Assembly: GCA_963790475.1 (NCBI GenBank) | Contig: CAWBOS010000010.1 | Span: forward strand, 800,001-864,000 | From: an uncultured delta proteobacterium | GTDB lineage: Bacteria > Desulfobacterota > RBG-13-43-22 | Length of the DNA: 64,000 nucleotides | Direction of reading: 5' to 3' | In this document: positions 22,178 to 27,221 of the stretch, piece by piece | Numbering within the stretch: the first letter of the stretch is position 1 | Layout: each line of letters starts with the position of its first letter | Translations under genes and position numbers: made by a program | Notes under the pieces: model-generated | The model's input: only the letters and a program-made list of their open reading frames with translations | Told to the model about the DNA's origin: nothing | The model's database searches: none

Positions 22178-22405
22178 AAAAGCAGGGCCATTTCTGACGA
22201 GCCGATAGCTTAACGTGTTGATAATACCGTTATGATATAACATTAAAGCCTATAATTATAAATAGTTAAATCATTGCCATTTGTAAGAAGATAATTTCTC
22301 AGAAAGAAAAAGCCTCTAACTCAAAAGAATTAGAGGCTTTTCGAATCATTGCAAATCCGTTTTCAACACGTTAAGCTATCGGGTCGCCATTTCTGACCCT
22401 GCTTT
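22178..22405. repeat. Pair of ~43-bp inverted repeats with a directly oriented 10-bp core
   Basis: 22178-22221 AAAGCAGGG-CCATTTCTGA-CGAGCCGATAGCTTAACGTGTTGA versus reverse complement of 22363-22405 AAAGCAGGG-TCAGAAATGG-CGACCCGATAGCTTAACGTGTTGA. Confidence 0.8.
22307..22341. terminator. Hairpin flanked by A and T tracts (bidirectional intrinsic terminator-like)
   Basis: AAAAGCCTCTAA-CTCAAAAGAA-TTAGAGGCTTTT. Confidence 0.6.
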
Positions 22406-22486
22406 CGTCCAGCTTACCAGATATTGATTTACGTTTTAACCTCGTGCTTGTAAGGAAGAACGGAGTGGGTCTCAAGTATTTCTTGT

Positions 22487-22678
22487 CTATTTATTAATAC
22501 TTACTGGAATAAAATAAATGTCTTTAACACTTACATCATGACCAAAAACTTTTTCTGCCCAACCCATGACTGATTCCCGGGTAATTCTGGAAGGATTCTT
22601 TCTTCTTTCCTCCAGAACTCCAAGCAACTCTTCTATTTTTGTTACCGGGTTACTCCTGTAAAATTCATATGCGATCAT
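22487..22678 (-). CDS. Small hypothetical protein (MIAYEFY...ERRKNP.RIT.ES...W)
   Basis: 63-aa ORF resembling small unannotated proteins I associate with deltaproteobacterial genomes (recall, unverified). Confidence 0.6.
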   Translation of the reverse strand: MIAYEFYRSNPVTKIEELLGVLEERRKNPSRITRESVMGWAEKVFGHDVSVKDIYFIPVSINK

Positions 22679-22864
22679 TTCTGATTTCTCTCAATCTGGT
22701 TAATAGATATTAAACCTTAAAAAAGAGCAGACCCTCTCTTCTCTGCTTCTTTTAATAAAAGCTTTTTTGTCCGCCTCCAATTTTTAAACCAAAAAGATCC
22801 ATAAAATCATATGCCTTTATGTTTTCACCAATTTCATATTTAGTGTTATAGAAGAAAACTTCGG

Positions 22865-23641
22865 CTAAGCAACCCTCTTTTTCCCCAGCGCCCTTAACGG
22901 GGTCAATATCTTATTCTCTAGGGGGACCCTTAAAAAAACAGGGTATCCATTTCCATTTGTCTGGATGGCTTTTTTTTCTTTGGGCAGTCGCAAGGGCACC
23001 TCCTTACCCGCTTGCTTTAATGAGTTGGAGGATGCTTCCAGGATGGCTACCACCCTCAATCCGTCATTTCCGTCGGATGGAGGATGAATCTCTTCTTTTA
23101 TACATTCCAAAAAGGTATCACACTGTTTCCTGAGGGGTTCATATTCGTCAATTCTTGGGCTATCAGTATCTCCTGACCGGTAGGCGAAATGGAACTCAGC
23201 AAAGGTATCATAATAAGGGGGTATTTCCAACCCCTTGTCATATATCTTTATCTTTTCCTGCAATTTCATGTCATCGTAAACCAACATCTTCCTTGTTCCG
23301 ACAATTGTTGTCTCCCGGATTTTTTTCGGATCAAGCCAACTGTTATGTATAAAGGCTATTAAGCCATTATTGAAGTTGAGCGAGGTGATCGCCACATCTT
23401 CAATATCAGATTTATAATGCGCTTTCCCTTGGCAGTTGACCGAAACCGGAAATTCGCCCAGGACATAAAGAATGATGGATATATCGTGGGGGGCAAGATC
23501 CCAAACCACATTGATATCCTTTTGAAGGAGTCCCAAGTTTGTATGGGTACAACTAACATAGAGTATCTTCCCCAATTCCCCACTTTCGATGATCTCTTTA
23601 ATCTTGTTTACAGCGGCTGTATATTCAAAGGTGTGGCCCAC
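22865..23641 (-). pseudogene. 5'-truncated Gfo/Idh/MocA oxidoreductase
   Basis: Begins at VGHTFEY (mid-protein) and has WDLAPHDIS and HNSWLDP.K.R; the N-terminal Rossmann part is missing. Confidence 0.8.
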
Positions 23642-23792
23642 TTTCGTTACCTATCGCAATGTTAATCGCCTCTTCACCGGAATTCGCTGTGATGACTTTG
23701 TAGCCGAAACTCTTGATCCTCTCCTTCTCGACCACCTCGATAAAAATCTCGTCTTCAACGAGAAGAATGGTTTTCTGTTCCTGGGTGCTCAT
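23625..23792 (-). pseudogene. Response-regulator receiver domain N-terminal fragment
   Basis: MSTQEQKTILLVEDE...FGYKVITANSGEEAINIA, then runs out of frame into the oxidoreductase remnant. Confidence 0.75.
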
Positions 23793-24378
23793 GGTTATTT
23801 TTCCGTTTCAAAAAGGCTCTTCCCGTTGGTTGCCAATATACTTTTTTCACATAATCTTTTTACTGTTAAAATCTAAAAAAGTCAAGATAAAACTCAACAT
23901 ATGGTATGTTTTTTATATTCGCTACAAGATATAGGTCAATCCATCCAAGGCCTGGCTGATCTTATCGGATTCGGATAATTCGAAGGGAAACCATCCCAGG
24001 ACTTGGCTCAGTCAAAAGATTTGGAATAGAAATCCGTCGACATTTTGTCATGAGACCGTCAATAACTTCACAAACCCGTTCATCGCTTCGGCAAGAAGGA
24101 AGAGGTCTTTTCTAAAGGTTTTTTTAGGGATTAATCGAGTTAGTCTCTTAGGGGAACGATGGCAGACTACTTGCTTTTTGAAAGCCTTGAGATCTCTTGC
24201 CGTTTCTAAGGCCAAGAAATATCAAGACCCTTTTATCGACGATTACGATTTGAACTCTTGTCTTTTTCCAAAAATTGGATTTAGAGGACTTCAGGAAGCT
24301 ATACGTACTAAAGTCTGATTTTCTTATTGAAGTTAATGGGTTAGGTACTGTTTAAAATTTCATAGTTTAGTTCTTTTG

Positions 24379-25266
24379 TCAAGGATTATTTGGGTTGCCA
24401 GCCGTTTGTAGCCTGATCACCTCCATGGCCTTGAAGTAGTCTCTCTGCACTTTCAGGTTTGATATCCGGCAGTACCGTTGCGTGGTTTTCACATTGCTAT
24501 GACCCAAGAGATCCTGGATGGTGCAGAGATCGGCATCAGCGTTGAGCAGCTGGGTGGCCATGGTGTGTCGAAGATGATGACAGGACACCTTGAGCTTCGC
24601 TTGGCGGCCATAATATTCCATGCGCCTCTGAATGCCACGAATGGAAATGGGCTGTCCCTTACAGGGAGCCTTTTCCGCCAGAAAGATCCTACTGGCTCTG
24701 GATAGAGGCCTCACCCTCAGATAGGCGGTCAGGGCCTGAAGGGCATCATGACTCATATAGACGACCCGGTCTTTTCCACCCTTGCCGTCTTCCACCAGGA
24801 TGGTCCTGCGCTTGACGTCGATGACGCCTATGGTGAGATGGGCGACTTCTTCCACCCGTAACCCGCATCTAAGCATAAGCATGAACATGGCCCGGTCGCG
24901 GGCCCCCTTGATGGCCTGGAAGAAGGTCTCCACCTGTTCATCTCTCAGGTGCCGGGGAAGGGGCCTGGACATCTTCTGGAAGTGATGCTTCCTGATGGGA
25001 TTGGTGATGGTCAGACCTTCTTCCTCCCGCAGATAATGGTAGAACTGGCGGATGCCGTTTAAGTGACAGTTGACTGTCTTGGGCGCCAGTCTCTTCCTCA
25101 TCAGATGCTCAATGTAGCGGGAGACGACCGCAGAGGTAACCTCCTCCACCGGCACATCCAACCAGATGACAAAGTGTTTAATGAGGTTCAGATAGTTCTT
25201 CAGGCAATGGGGCGAACAGTTCCTTCGCTTCAAAAATCGCCGCCAGTTCAGGATCGCATCGATCAT
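24379..25266 (-). CDS. XerC/D-like tyrosine recombinase B
   Basis: RCGLRVEE, GKGGKDR, HHLRH, LLGH..VKTTQRY (complete R-K-H-R-H-Y set); AGGAGG RBS. Confidence 0.93.
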   Translation of the reverse strand: MIDAILNWRRFLKRRNCSPHCLKNYLNLIKHFVIWLDVPVEEVTSAVVSRYIEHLMRKRLAPKTVNCHLNGIRQFYHYLREEEGLTITNPIRKHHFQKMSRPLPRHLRDEQVETFFQAIKGARDRAMFMLMLRCGLRVEEVAHLTIGVIDVKRRTILVEDGKGGKDRVVYMSHDALQALTAYLRVRPLSRASRIFLAEKAPCKGQPISIRGIQRRMEYYGRQAKLKVSCHHLRHTMATQLLNADADLCTIQDLLGHSNVKTTQRYCRISNLKVQRDYFKAMEVIRLQTAGNPNNP

Positions 25267-26317
25267 GACTCTTCCTCCTCTCGATCTTCGACATGGCCTT
25301 AAAATACTCCTCCTCCCGGGTCTTATCGGTCAACCGGGCATAACGTCGCGTCTCCTCGATGCTCCGGTGTCCCAGCAATACCTGGAGGCACTCCAGACGC
25401 ATGCCGGCGTTGAGCAACTCCGTGGCAAAGGTGTGACGCAGGGTATGCAGGGAATATCCCTTGCCCTCTAATCCCGCTTTGGATATATATCGCAGAAAGA
25501 TGATCCGGGCGGTGCTGTAACACAAAGTCTCGACGTTCTTCCCATAGAACAGGTACTCCTCTCCGGGATTCCTCTTCTTCAACCACTTCCGCAGGGCTAT
25601 AACTGCATCGTCGCTGAGATAGACCACCCTCCCCAGGCGGTTCTTCTCCCCTTCGTAAATCTCTATCTTCCGCTCCTGGAGATGGACGTCGGTCATCTTG
25701 GTCTGAAGCAACTCGCCGATCCGCAGGCCAGTCCGCAACAAGACCAGGATCAAAGCTCGGTCACGGATATCATGAATAACGGAAAGCAGCTTCTGCAGAT
25801 CGTCAGGATCCATGGCCCGCGGCAGCCGCTCCGGTAACTGCAACCGTATCCTCCGACTGCGGAATATATCCCCAGAAACGATCCCTTCCTCCACCAGATA
25901 GCGGAGAAAGGCCTGCACACTCACCAGCCTGGTCCTGATCGTCGTTATCTTAATCCCCCGGTCCTGCTCTCGCTCGATAAAGGCCTCTACATCACTTCGG
26001 GTAATGGCTTCAAAGCCTTTGCCGGTGTCCCGTATCAGTCCCAGAAAAAGAACGAGGGTGCCAAACCGACTGTACAGGGTTCTCGGTCGGCGATTGCCGT
26101 GAGTTAAGTGGCGAAGATAGGCGGCTACCTGATCTCTCCCCGGGAGGTCCATTCCGGCCAACCGTTTCAAAATCTTTCCGAGCGCTTCTAAACTTCCTTC
26201 AAGATGGGAGGTGAATCGTAACCGCGTCTGATAGTAACGGGGTGGGGTTGGGGTGGGACTCTTAAAATGATCTGAAGTTATATCTGCCTTCTGTATATCA
26301 CTATATAGGCTCGTCAT
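25178..26317 (-). CDS. XerC/D-like tyrosine recombinase A with N-terminal extension
   Basis: RTGLRIGE, EGEKNR, HTLRH, LLGH..IEETRRY; AAGGAG RBS; 89-bp overlap with recombinase B. Confidence 0.93.
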   Translation of the reverse strand: MTSLYSDIQKADITSDHFKSPTPTPPRYYQTRLRFTSHLEGSLEALGKILKRLAGMDLPGRDQVAAYLRHLTHGNRRPRTLYSRFGTLVLFLGLIRDTGKGFEAITRSDVEAFIEREQDRGIKITTIRTRLVSVQAFLRYLVEEGIVSGDIFRSRRIRLQLPERLPRAMDPDDLQKLLSVIHDIRDRALILVLLRTGLRIGELLQTKMTDVHLQERKIEIYEGEKNRLGRVVYLSDDAVIALRKWLKKRNPGEEYLFYGKNVETLCYSTARIIFLRYISKAGLEGKGYSLHTLRHTFATELLNAGMRLECLQVLLGHRSIEETRRYARLTDKTREEEYFKAMSKIERRKSHDRCDPELAAIFEAKELFAPLPEELSEPH

Positions 26318-26519
26318 CTCTGTCTCCTTTTCTTAAATCAATAAGAAAATCAGACAGATGATGATCAAAATCTCCTTATCTGTCAATCATCACTTTGGTA
26401 CGTATAGCAGGAAGAAACGTTGCCATCAAACTTGACATCGTCCGTATAGTCGTATCCTGATTTTTACATATTAAGGTCTCATAATAGTCTTGACCTAAAA
26501 CTAAAGAGCTCGCATATCC

Positions 26520-27221
26520 CTATGATTTGGGTGGAAGGGTGATTTTCCGGTAATACGAATTGGAAAGATAGATGGCGGCCAGGGGGTTGTGGCCGGTCAC
26601 CCGGTCCTTGACCGCCAGGACCGTTGTGGGGGCCTTGGCATATTTGAAAAAAAGGGAATCATGGCCGACACACAGACCCAGGAGGACATTGAATTCCGTC
26701 TTGGCCTTGTTCAGGACCTTGGCCTGATAGATGGGATTGCACATGGCCTCATCCGTACCCTGGAAAATTTTTTCCTTATCTTTGACCCCGATTTTTTCCT
26801 TGGAAATTCGTCCGGCCTTGCAGACCACCGAGATCACTTCGAACCCCTGTGATTTGAAAATCCTTTCCACGGCTTTGGCCTCTTGGACCAGGCCGATACA
26901 AAAAGCCAATCCCAGGCGCTTATAACCCATCTTTTGGGCAAACTCGCAGATTTCCACGATGCGGGTCTTGGTGGGCTGCAGAACATAAGGCCGTTGGTGG
27001 CGATTGGCATAACATTCCCCCTCCTGGATGGAGGCCTGTCGGGCAAACTCTTTGGTCTGCGGGTTCTCATATTCCTTTAGGGCCTCGATTAAACTATTTT
27101 CTTTCAGCAGGGTAGGGCAGCCCTTGGAGCCGATTCCATCCGAAGAAAAGCAGATTCTCTTCGGGGTGATGATTTCACAGGAGGCACAGGAGGGGAGGGG
27201 AGTATCTTTTTTTATAGTCAT
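26520..27221 (-). CDS. DUF1847-like Cys-rich metal-binding protein
   Basis: TRIVE, GLAFCIGL, SVVCKAG, MCNP..QA, GLCVGHDSLF, KDRVTGHNP. Confidence 0.85.
   Translation of the reverse strand: MTIKKDTPLPSCASCEIITPKRICFSSDGIGSKGCPTLLKENSLIEALKEYENPQTKEFARQASIQEGECYANRHQRPYVLQPTKTRIVEICEFAQKMGYKRLGLAFCIGLVQEAKAVERIFKSQGFEVISVVCKAGRISKEKIGVKDKEKIFQGTDEAMCNPIYQAKVLNKAKTEFNVLLGLCVGHDSLFFKYAKAPTTVLAVKDRVTGHNPLAAIYLSNSYYRKITLPPKS

Follow-up and report, generated by a model that had tools for sequence, protein, structure and literature searches.

Mobile elements that use tyrosine recombinases are mostly known as large islands, phages, ICEs, Tn554 and three-gene RIT elements. The Tn554 family carries tnpA and tnpB together with a third gene, tnpC. 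In the TnPZ or XerT-type system of Helicobacter, a Xer-family recombinase inserts at a fixed 7-bp motif, which then flanks both ends, and TnPZ itself is large, conjugative and equipped with a single recombinase. According to PMC3414803, actinobacteria have Tn554-related tandems in which two recombinases lie side by side. The locus analysed in this study lies in a window of 64,000 nucleotides (the whole stretch of DNA under analysis) and carries two tyrosine recombinase genes, A and B. Quite likely, this is a site-specific integrative element of IS size that moves autonomously by means of its own Xer-like recombinase pair.

Structure of the element

As read from the sequence, the two-recombinase element is 2109 bp long (window positions 24299-26407), and together with its flanks it is organised as follows.

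24224..24291, + strand: host intergenic repeat motif serving as target, left of the core; matched by the nhmmer model, with conservation ending at the core
24292..24298, + strand: left copy of the core CAGGAAG, the putative crossover (overlap) region; the same at both sides of all three copies
24299..24314, + strand: left terminal arm (B side), CTATACGTACTAAAGT; conserved in 34 unique left ends
24313..24330, + strand: left copy of the subterminal box, GTCTGATTTTCTTATTGA; directly abuts the arm
24379..25266, - strand: gene B, a Xer-like tyrosine recombinase of 295 aa, from its ORF, Pfam matches and catalytic residues
25178..26317, - strand: gene A, a Xer-like tyrosine recombinase of 379 aa, from the same three kinds of evidence
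26338..26355, + strand: right copy of the subterminal box, between the gene A promoter and its ribosome-binding site
26358..26386, - strand: predicted sigma-70-like promoter directed towards gene A (TTGACA-17 nt-CATCAT), with 10/12 consensus matches only
26392..26407, + strand: right terminal arm (A side), ACTTTGGTACGTATAG; reverse complement of the left arm with one mismatch
26408..26414, + strand: right copy of the core CAGGAAG; direct repeat of the left core

The terminal inverted repeats are 16 bp long with one mismatch (T/C at position 11), and a repeat search of the window recovered this arm pair (17 nt, 94%). A second inverted repeat inside the element is perfect over 18 nt (24313-24330 and 26338-26355), and its family consensus is CTGnTTTTCTTATTGA; this subterminal repeat was absent from the preliminary description of the locus. 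The right copy is a candidate operator or accessory recombinase site. Within the predicted promoter, TTGAC(A/C) and TCATCATCT are conserved over 30 unique right ends. Both genes are on the minus strand, and the 3' end of A overlaps the start of B by 89 nt. All features of an insertion sequence are present in the descriptive sense, namely a length below 2.5 kb, mobility genes only, inverted repeats, direct repeats and several copies; however, its direct repeat consists of a constant core, and its mobility genes encode tyrosine recombinases, enzymes that no ISfinder family is known to use.

A and B each match the Pfam Phage_integrase domain and an N-terminal SAM-like domain. The catalytic residues R199, K225, H291, R294, H317 and Y326 of A are invariant in 24 sequences, and R137, K162/K165, H230, R233, H256 and Y265 of B in 11 sequences. 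These results agree with the preliminary description, which had reported a delimited 2.1-kb element with inverted-repeat ends and CAGGAAG flanks, at coordinates that we confirmed, and a complete R-K-H-R-H-Y set in both ORFs. The N-terminus of A is variable and disordered, and the predicted structure of A (a moderate model, mean pLDDT 72.7) shows one core-binding domain of four helices, with a single additional helix and a disordered tail in front of it.

XerA, XerC and XerD were the best-scoring models for both proteins. Against the XerC and XerD NCBIfam equivalog cut-offs of 335 and 330 bits, A reached 145 and 132 bits and B 202 and 170 bits; the integron integrase model gave 71.7 bits for A and 111.1 bits for B, with a cut-off of 265. 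The host genome encodes its own XerD elsewhere, above the cut-off at 381.5 bits, as well as a XerC-like gene. Since A and B are both publicly annotated as XerD, recognising the family would correct this annotation. A quick version of a tree, with long reference branches and weak support, placed A and B in separate clades with matching subclades, and left one RIT trio and an actinobacterial pair of 341 and 611 aa outside both; the A-B pair thus placed appears to evolve as a unit. Carriage of the element by viruses or plasmids was considered and rejected: the best viral-contig relative of A was only 34% identical, and plasmid relatives were at most 32% identical.

Copies, empty site and family

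The genome contains three copies of the element at unlinked places, in unrelated contexts and with base-exact ends. A tabulation of their 7-bp flanks, which the preliminary description had proposed, gave CAGGAAG on every copy. Copies 1 and 2 are 100% identical (0 differences in 2109 bp), and copy 3 differs by nine substitutions and a 1-bp insertion. In another genome of the same genus (G013:C38) the site is empty, as that description had also foreseen: the motif and just one CAGGAAG precede a right flank 86% identical over 340 nt to that of copy 2, and at this core the orthologous right flank adjoins a non-orthologous left side. The distribution is patchy, with A found at E <= 1e-20 in 5/13 same-genus genomes, and several genomes carry multiple copies. 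The element is real, recently active and mobile.

A pattern search of the assembly with up to three mismatches matched only the six ends of the three copies, with no circle junction or solo end. Logan contigs from four metagenome runs showed neither a joint across the element nor a junction form, a result that is uninformative because contigs cannot show rare forms. Loose contig ends at 24290/24292 and 26414 represent other insertion contexts. Short matches in two other genomes (G002 and G004) were examined as miniature non-autonomous derivatives and turned out to be one-ended remnants beside a core and motif. The left flank of the element in the window is duplicated in the genome (97% over 600 nt), and the duplication stops exactly at the core.

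We found 37 complete elements, mainly in MAGs of Syntrophales, Smithellaceae and Desulfobacterales. All 37 have exactly two recombinase ORFs, which lie on the same strand and share a conserved overlap (about 30-95 nt in the family as a whole), and none has a third gene, in line with the earlier claim of a cargo-free element lacking a third recombinase. Identity of A among them ranges from 48 to 100%, and the A and B proteins of the family measure 288-400 aa. The CTATACGTA... ends, the subterminal box and the predicted internal promoter occur family-wide. As the same ends and flanks recur in all three genome copies and in 36 further complete elements, these features are not due to chance.

The 7-bp core

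The flanking 7-mer does not vary inside a lineage, but other lineages carry other 7-mers (CAGGAAG, GTATTTG, GTAGGTG and others). Among the 35 elements outside the genome that have both flanks, the 7-bp direct repeat is exact in 31, differs by one base in three and is discordant in one (L060). The main core classes in the 36 elements outside the genome were CAGGAAG (22, including L044 with one mismatch), GTATTTG (5) and GTAGGTG (3, including L011 with one flank only), and CACCTAC, CAGTTAG, ATAGCAG, ATAGCCG/ATAGCTG, TAGCAAG/TGGCAAG and CAGCTTT/CAGATGG were seen once each. A 7-mer that is fixed per lineage and different across lineages argues for a crossover region and against a random target duplication; likewise, the direct repeat is the same in all three genome copies, which makes it a fixed core and not a target duplication that changes with the site.

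The host repeat as target

The target is a host intergenic repeat of about 60 nt, and all three insertions in the genome lie at its end. The nhmmer motif model matched 39 places in the genome, including contig C10 824224-824298, which corresponds to window positions 24224-24298. The preliminary description had supposed that a short match to the target suffices; the genome has 1848 CAGGAAG sites, yet 3/3 insertions are at this 39-copy repeat. Its picture of a low-specificity transposon is likewise not borne out, given the constant 7-mer per lineage and the positioned box upstream of the core.

This box, ATTACGATTTGAACTCT, starts at 24242 in the target, 50 nt before the core, and in 23/32 insertion sites of other genomes the box starts 49-52 nt before the core. 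When the box was tested at the 32 sites elsewhere, 14/32 exceeded the 95th percentile of the control (Mann-Whitney p = 0.0018), statistics that overstate independence because the insertion sites are partly related across genomes (L061/L062 and L050/L065, for example, are each the same site in two genomes). The motif model matched 7/32 left flanks and 0/32 right flanks in other genomes. The target contains no sequence resembling the element's arms, as had been noted before, and its box showed no homology with the element ends (33 elements, mean z about 0); nor did target and element ends share any homology of a guide-like or extended attP/attB kind. Taken together, the 3/3 insertions at the motif end, the box spacing and the lineage-specific 7-mer indicate that the element integrates site-specifically through a shared core like that of attP and attB.

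Motif copies often occur in same-orientation arrays, 2-5 kb apart. Seven of 25 motif sites continue with CTA/CTG..., one of them with 8 bases of the element's arm, and these sequences may be relics of past insertions. No motif copy carried any other insert with an inverted repeat and a second core at its boundaries. We rejected the idea that the motif is a structured RNA or a hairpin of the attC kind: RNAalifold gave an energy of 0 for either strand, Rfam yielded nothing at E <= 1 over 23500-27000, and a stem checked by hand (TTGAA/TTCAG) showed no consistent compensation. A protein C-terminus was rejected as well, as the motif lacks a conserved reading frame. One subfamily has a repeat that resembles an ordinary small transcription unit with a terminator at its end.

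Proposed mechanism

The mechanism that we infer involves a circular form, defined cleavage positions, joint action of A and B with a role for each, and reading of the box. The recombinases would pair the two ends and exchange strands at both edges of the 7-bp core. Excision would yield a 2116-bp circle with the junction arm-CAGGAAG-arm, a palindromic core site, and leave one CAGGAAG in the donor; the arm-core anatomy agrees with the earlier proposal of a junction in which inverted arms enclose a 7-bp spacer. The circle would then re-integrate by the reverse reaction at a chromosomal CAGGAAG that ends the host intergenic repeat. The asymmetric core would set the orientation of insertion, so that the B side would always adjoin the repeat. 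The remaining specificity would come from the box about 50 nt upstream of the core and the 3-4 bases preceding the core, which are probably read by protein, since the element has no sequence matching the box. Expression of A and B would be driven by the element's own predicted promoter, and the subterminal box at the predicted transcript start is likely to be an autoregulatory or accessory site.

A further, tentative proposal combines two ideas, to which we jointly give a low probability: that the core is a heritable, rewritable address borne by the element, and that the recombinase pair also recombines host sites of motif plus core with one another. Under a rewritable address, integration at a near-cognate site would give unequal left and right cores, the next excision would fix the new core, and lineages would retarget stepwise. 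Three copies with unequal left and right cores were seen, and cores switched several times on the tree. If the pair does recombine the host sites, these repeats would resemble an integron, as a platform on which small transcription units of Thermodesulfobacteriota genomes are shuffled.

Alternative explanations

The least improbable alternative holds that motif-plus-core sites are general recombination junctions, with A and B as the integrases of an integron-like cassette platform and the element as its selfish autonomous member. The arrays of motif copies, the duplication of more than 600 nt that terminates at the core, the non-orthologous left side of the G013 junction and the possible relics after 7/25 motif sites are compatible with this explanation, and repeat conservation stops exactly at the core in 8 within-genome site pairs. 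However, in 4 pairs similarity continues for about 55-60 nt past the core, and it also crosses in same-genus matches to L113:5920-6191, while no within-genome pair has right-side similarity that begins at the core. The lack of any other inverted-repeat-bounded insert at motif copies, the motif without an attC-like consensus hairpin and the subfamily in which the repeat looks like a small transcription unit ending in a terminator also speak against it, and we consider it improbable.

Another alternative is a RIT element in degraded or reduced form, with one of its three recombinases lost. RIT elements, too, are free of cargo, carry tyrosine recombinases only and are bounded by inverted repeats, according to PMC3414803, and among plasmid matches of A the best (29% identity) comes from a Bradyrhizobium plasmid, where it is the third gene in a RIT trio. 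Nevertheless, two genes in 37/37 complete elements over A identities of 48-100% give no sign of a lost third gene, which supports the preliminary view that this is not an individually degraded RIT. The overlaps of about 30-95 nt contrast with the typical 4-8 bp in RIT elements, according to PMC3414803; RitA is reported in PMC8138268 to have two sequential core-binding domains, whereas the modelled A has one plus a helix; and A and B both fall outside the trio in the quick tree. A reduced RIT is therefore, on these grounds, very improbable.

Membership in the Tn554 family, with TnpA and TnpB as the two recombinases, is still harder to credit. Two tyrosine recombinases and site-specific insertion occur there too, and the short member of an actinobacterial Tn554-related tandem is 30.6% identical to A. 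However, no element has a tnpC-like third gene, neither A nor B is long while the actinobacterial tandem has a 611-aa partner, and the references lie outside the A and B clades of the quick tree. The terminal inverted repeats of the element are also clear, and the same 7-mer lies on either side of it, two features that Tn554 is not known to have.

Non-mobile segmental duplication of a recombinase pair that serves the cell, for instance in dimer resolution or as an inversion switch, as the best-scoring Xer models and the public XerD annotation could suggest, is already contradicted by the scores far below the equivalog cut-offs, the separate host XerD and XerC-like genes, the identical base-exact copies in unrelated contexts, the empty site, the patchy distribution and the multi-copy genomes.

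Comparison with known systems

Considered as an autonomous site-specific integrative element, the family is widespread in syntrophic and sulfate-reducer-type lineages and combines dif-like palindromic ends with a lineage-specific 7-bp address. It offers a compact system for studying the division of work between two recombinases, allows specificity reprogramming to be tested by a 7-bp swap, and raises the question of how a box 50 bp away could mediate the capture of a target that lacks arm-like sequence. Recognising it would also flag repeat-induced contig breaks in these MAGs. Apparently, the family is undescribed and fits no named family, as the preliminary description had concluded; no published description was found, and the supplements of PMC3414803 and PMC8138268 may list related pairs.

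RIT elements, as described in PMC3414803, are similarly small and cargo-free, with one operon-like recombinase block, inverted repeats and multiple copies in some genomes, and a distant common ancestry is conceivable. They differ in having three consecutive genes, ritA-ritB-ritC, with short gene overlaps in place of the long one here, and the two-recombinase element has short arms of 16-20 bp with a fixed flanking 7-mer. RIT hosts are mainly alpha- and beta-proteobacteria, whereas this family is found in Thermodesulfobacteriota-type MAGs. BIM, the known two-gene family, also includes a tyrosine recombinase, but according to PMC3414803 its second protein is not a recombinase and its hosts are beta-proteobacteria; it was ruled out, since both genes here encode recombinases.

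Tn554 and the actinobacterial tandems resemble the element in having two tyrosine recombinases together, site-specific insertion and a short shared core, and they differ in that the element has no TnpC-like gene, cargo or 600-800-aa partner and possesses terminal inverted repeats and a core constant per lineage. XerC/XerD at dif and the IMEX elements, whose integration site is dif, share simple, Xer-like recombinases, and the predicted circle junction is dif-like, with two inverted arms of roughly 10-16 bp around a 7-bp centre; however, the element encodes its own pair, the host Xer genes are separate, and the target is a multi-copy repeat unlike the arms. Compared with TnPZ, the element is only 2.1 kb long, has two recombinases and calls for a positioned upstream box. 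Integron integrases and attC sites are comparable in that recombination takes place at the edge of a conserved 60-140-nt site recurring in arrays, with weak model matches, but the scores are far below the cut-off, the motif has no hairpin consensus and all seven core bases are kept on both sides. To our knowledge, this 2.1-kb two-recombinase element would be among the most compact autonomous tyrosine-recombinase elements known.

Structure and recent mobility of the element

The element in the window is delimited as in the preliminary description, with terminal inverted repeats (arms), flanking CAGGAAG 7-mers (the core) and two recombinase ORFs, A and B, and it has the following features:

24292–24298: core CAGGAAG, left copy (read directly)
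24299–26407: element, 2109 bp, starting CTATACGTACTAAAGT and terminating in its reverse complement with one mismatch
24313–24330 and 26338–26355: second inverted repeat, perfect, 18 nt (repeat search)
24379–25266, minus strand: gene B, 295 aa (ORF call)
25178–26317, minus strand: gene A, 379 aa (ORF call)
26408–26414: core CAGGAAG, right copy (read directly)

The arm pair was recovered by a repeat search of the window sequence. The two ORFs, which fill the element and overlap by 89 nt, each carry Pfam Phage_integrase and an N-terminal SAM-like domain.

Three copies were found in the window's genome (6.34 Mb, 20 contigs), all with CAGGAAG on both sides, and homology among the three loci begins and ends precisely at the element ends. 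Copies 1 and 2 are identical across all 2109 bp; copy 3 differs by 9 substitutions and by a 1-bp insertion that shortens A to 339 aa, downstream of the catalytic Tyr. In a same-genus genome, contig G013:C38 matches the right flank of copy 2 at 86% identity over 340 nt, and the match is preceded by a single CAGGAAG with the element absent, an empty site of the kind sought in the preliminary description, albeit with another copy of the host repeat discussed below on its left side. The element is real and recently active.

As a separate observation, the left flank in the window (22386–24298) is a segmental duplicate of C10:478652–481333 (99.3% over 1257 bp and 96.8% over 659 bp) that stops precisely at the core. 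At 23641 about 768 bp are missing from the window version, a loss that left two fragments:

22865–23641, minus strand: truncated Gfo/Idh/MocA-like ORF
23625–23792, minus strand: response-regulator fragment, 55 aa

A family of paired recombinases with lineage-specific cores

In related genomes, A was found at 78–82% identity, with B always adjoining, and a further branch at 55%. The species-representative collection yielded 48 loci (A identity 48–80%), mostly in MAGs labelled Syntrophales, Smithellaceae, Syntrophaceae, Smithella, Desulfobacterales, Thermodesulfobacteriota or "delta proteobacterium"; five loci lie in one Smithellaceae MAG, and one each in MAGs labelled Syntrophorhabdus, Thermodesulfovibrionia, FCB group and Bathyarchaeota, for which mis-binning is possible. 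All 37 complete elements, the window's included (2041–2448 bp), have ends CTATACGTA(A/C)... and two same-strand recombinase ORFs with a conserved overlap (where intact, A 336–400 aa and B 288–333 aa), and no third gene was found in any of them. Three of the copies (L059, L065 and L011) are decayed. The element belongs to a coherent family, which is apparently undescribed. In the hit table of public sequences, many close A relatives lie on metagenome contigs of ~2.0–2.6 kb, about the size of the element, as is usual where a repeat assembles alone and breaks MAG contigs.

In a quick tree, A and B formed separate clades (100% support for B) with corresponding subclades, indicating that the pair evolves as a unit. 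Outside the window's genome, 35 elements have both flanks: an exact 7-bp direct repeat was present in 31, a one-base difference in three (L044 CAGGAAG/CAGGAAA, L075 ATAGCCG/ATAGCTG and L074 TAGCAAG/TGGCAAG) and discordant flanks in one (L060).

Core classes over all 36 elements outside the window's genome
CAGGAAG (L044 included): 22 elements
GTATTTG: 5 elements
GTAGGTG: 3 elements (L011 with one flank only)
CACCTAC (reverse complement of GTAGGTG): 1 element
CAGTTAG: 1 element
ATAGCAG: 1 element
ATAGCCG/ATAGCTG: 1 element
TAGCAAG/TGGCAAG: 1 element
CAGCTTT/CAGATGG: 1 element

In the same tree, the GTATTTG elements form one subclade, and the GTAGGTG clade includes one CAGGAAG element (L076), so that the core must have changed more than once. 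That the 7-mer is a random target duplication is contradicted by the constancy of CAGGAAG at all three copies and by the lineage-specific cores elsewhere. Conserved arms around a lineage-specific 7-mer match the expectation for a tyrosine-recombinase core site with a 7-bp overlap region. In a Smithella MAG (L069), the core read along the element body is CACCTAC, which is the GTAGGTG of the L010/L068 group in reverse complement; with an inverted core and symmetric arms, the insertion orientation relative to the target should invert.

The target is a host intergenic repeat

The left flanks of the three copies share 36–41 of 60 identical positions, compared with 15.2 ± 3.5 for sequences upstream of random CAGGAAG sites, of which the genome has 1848 overall. 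These flanks are copies of a ~60-nt motif that nhmmer matched at 39 places in this genome, and its conservation stops at the core in most copies. Motif copies are intergenic, often arrayed in the same orientation 2–5 kb apart, with neighbouring genes mostly on the opposite strand; one gene ends 3–115 nt past the core and the next starts 60–500 nt past the motif. Since the same-genus genomes G002, G004, G005, G007 and G008, where A was undetected at E <= 1e-20, also have ~100-bp stretches that end in the motif (E <= 1e-10), the motif is a host feature. Neither a consensus fold nor an Rfam match was found for it. The motif lies within longer dispersed units of about 100–270 bp, and in one subfamily the unit runs, on the neighbouring-gene strand, from core through motif to an intrinsic terminator; the motif may form the upstream end of a small transcription unit.

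Across genomes, the target retains two blocks, the box ATTACCGTTTGAAAT and A(C/T)T(T/A) immediately preceding the core. With a box weight matrix from 12 unoccupied copies in the 15-site seed alignment, the best match begins 49–52 nt ahead of the core (44 possible starts) at 23 of 32 insertion sites elsewhere, several of which are orthologous between genomes and thus not independent. Fourteen of the 32 score above the 95th percentile of the controls, which were right flanks (Mann-Whitney p = 0.0018), and nhmmer with the same 12 copies matched 7/32 left flanks versus 0/32 right flanks. The B side of the element always faces the motif, and sequence comparison showed no likeness of the target to the arms or to any non-coding part of the element. 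The transposon needing only a short target match, as first proposed, was not borne out; unlike a low-specificity transposon, the element has a fixed 7-bp address.

Several further repeats and remnants were observed, and the regions around motif sites are rich in mobile DNA. In one subfamily (L113:1761–2070, reverse complement, and related copies), the motif starts a ~250-bp unit ending in an intrinsic terminator on the neighbouring-gene strand, and related copies have a TGTATAAT-type -10 ~100 nt past the motif; such units may be genes for small RNAs or small peptides that form a family. CTA.../CTG... directly follows seven of 25 motif copies (C15:131825, C15:268354, C6:407104, C1:4888, C6:633054, C12:876685 and C6:570690), perhaps as a relic of old insertions; at C15:131825 the arm (CTATACGT) is matched by the first 8 bases past the motif, and the sequence after them resembles the subterminal box. 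One-ended remnants (~140–220 bp of the B-side end) adjoin core and motif at L089 (G002:C262) and L091 (G004:C40), in genomes with A undetected at E <= 1e-20, and the G002 remnant is at a motif copy closely resembling the left flank of copy 3. A 453-aa transposase-like ORF (MNPPRFKCCDRD...) lies about 440–1800 nt left of copy 3 (L003 flank, C13) and again at C15:16000–17400 near another motif copy. Unrelated to the motif is a 141-bp dispersed repeat (L113:1383–1523, C12:1009882–1010022), which looks MITE-like, with 54 BLAST matches in the window's genome and, in every same-genus genome searched, many copies at 83–92% identity. A further tyrosine recombinase gene occurs twice (C10:1651379–1652161 and C11:98092–98874), each time scoring 151.5 bits against the XerD model, and is probably a different repeated mobile element.

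Element ends, recombinases and a possible mechanism

In addition to the arm, there is a subterminal box, CTGnTTTTCTTATTGA, at both element ends, the two copies being inverted; it abuts the arm on the B side and lies ~36 nt further inward on the A side. The A-side interval between arm and box contains TTGACA-17 nt-CATCAT, and TTGAC(A/C) and TCATCATCT recur with few exceptions over the 30 unique right ends compared. Given this promoter-like sequence, the A-side box falls where the transcript is predicted to start, ahead of the ribosome-binding site AAAAGGAGG.

The catalytic sets are invariant in 24 A and 11 B sequences. A structural model of A (mean pLDDT 72.7) has disordered residues 1–36 and an extra helix (36–54), followed by a four-helix core-binding domain and the catalytic domain; no separate arm-binding domain was found in this model. 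The closest solved relatives are a XerC-like (XerA-type) archaeal recombinase (4a8e) and XerD (1a0p).

In its behaviour the element is a miniature integrative element whose predicted junction is dif-like and whose 7-bp address is fixed. In the proposed mechanism, A and B would synapse the ends and strands would be exchanged at the edges of the 7-bp core, producing a 2116-bp circle, in which the ends meet at a palindromic arm-core-arm site, and leaving one core at the donor site. Integration would be the reverse reaction at a chromosomal core beside the box, with core identity setting register and orientation. The three elements with unequal cores fit integration at near-cognate sites, which would also be a route to new cores. 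No circle or excision product was seen in the assembly or in contigs of four metagenome runs, where rare forms would not show.

Comparison with known systems

In NCBIfam, A and B are nearest to XerA, XerC and XerD with scores far under cut-off; the host's own XerD scores above cut-off. Public names are only "integrase/recombinase XerD" or "tyrosine-type recombinase/integrase". The best plasmid relatives (<=32% identical) come from a recombinase-in-trio (RIT) element and an actinobacterial Tn554-related tandem, both of which fall outside the A and B clades in the quick tree. Within the available part of PMC8138268, the words "pairs", "two YR" and "tandem" are absent, and full-text literature searches, which covered few subscription journals, yielded no paper on an IS-sized element with two tyrosine recombinases. 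These data agree with the preliminary description, which could assign the element to no named family. The bipartite module (BIM), according to the text available from PMC3414803, pairs one recombinase with a non-recombinase, whereas both genes of the present element are recombinases.
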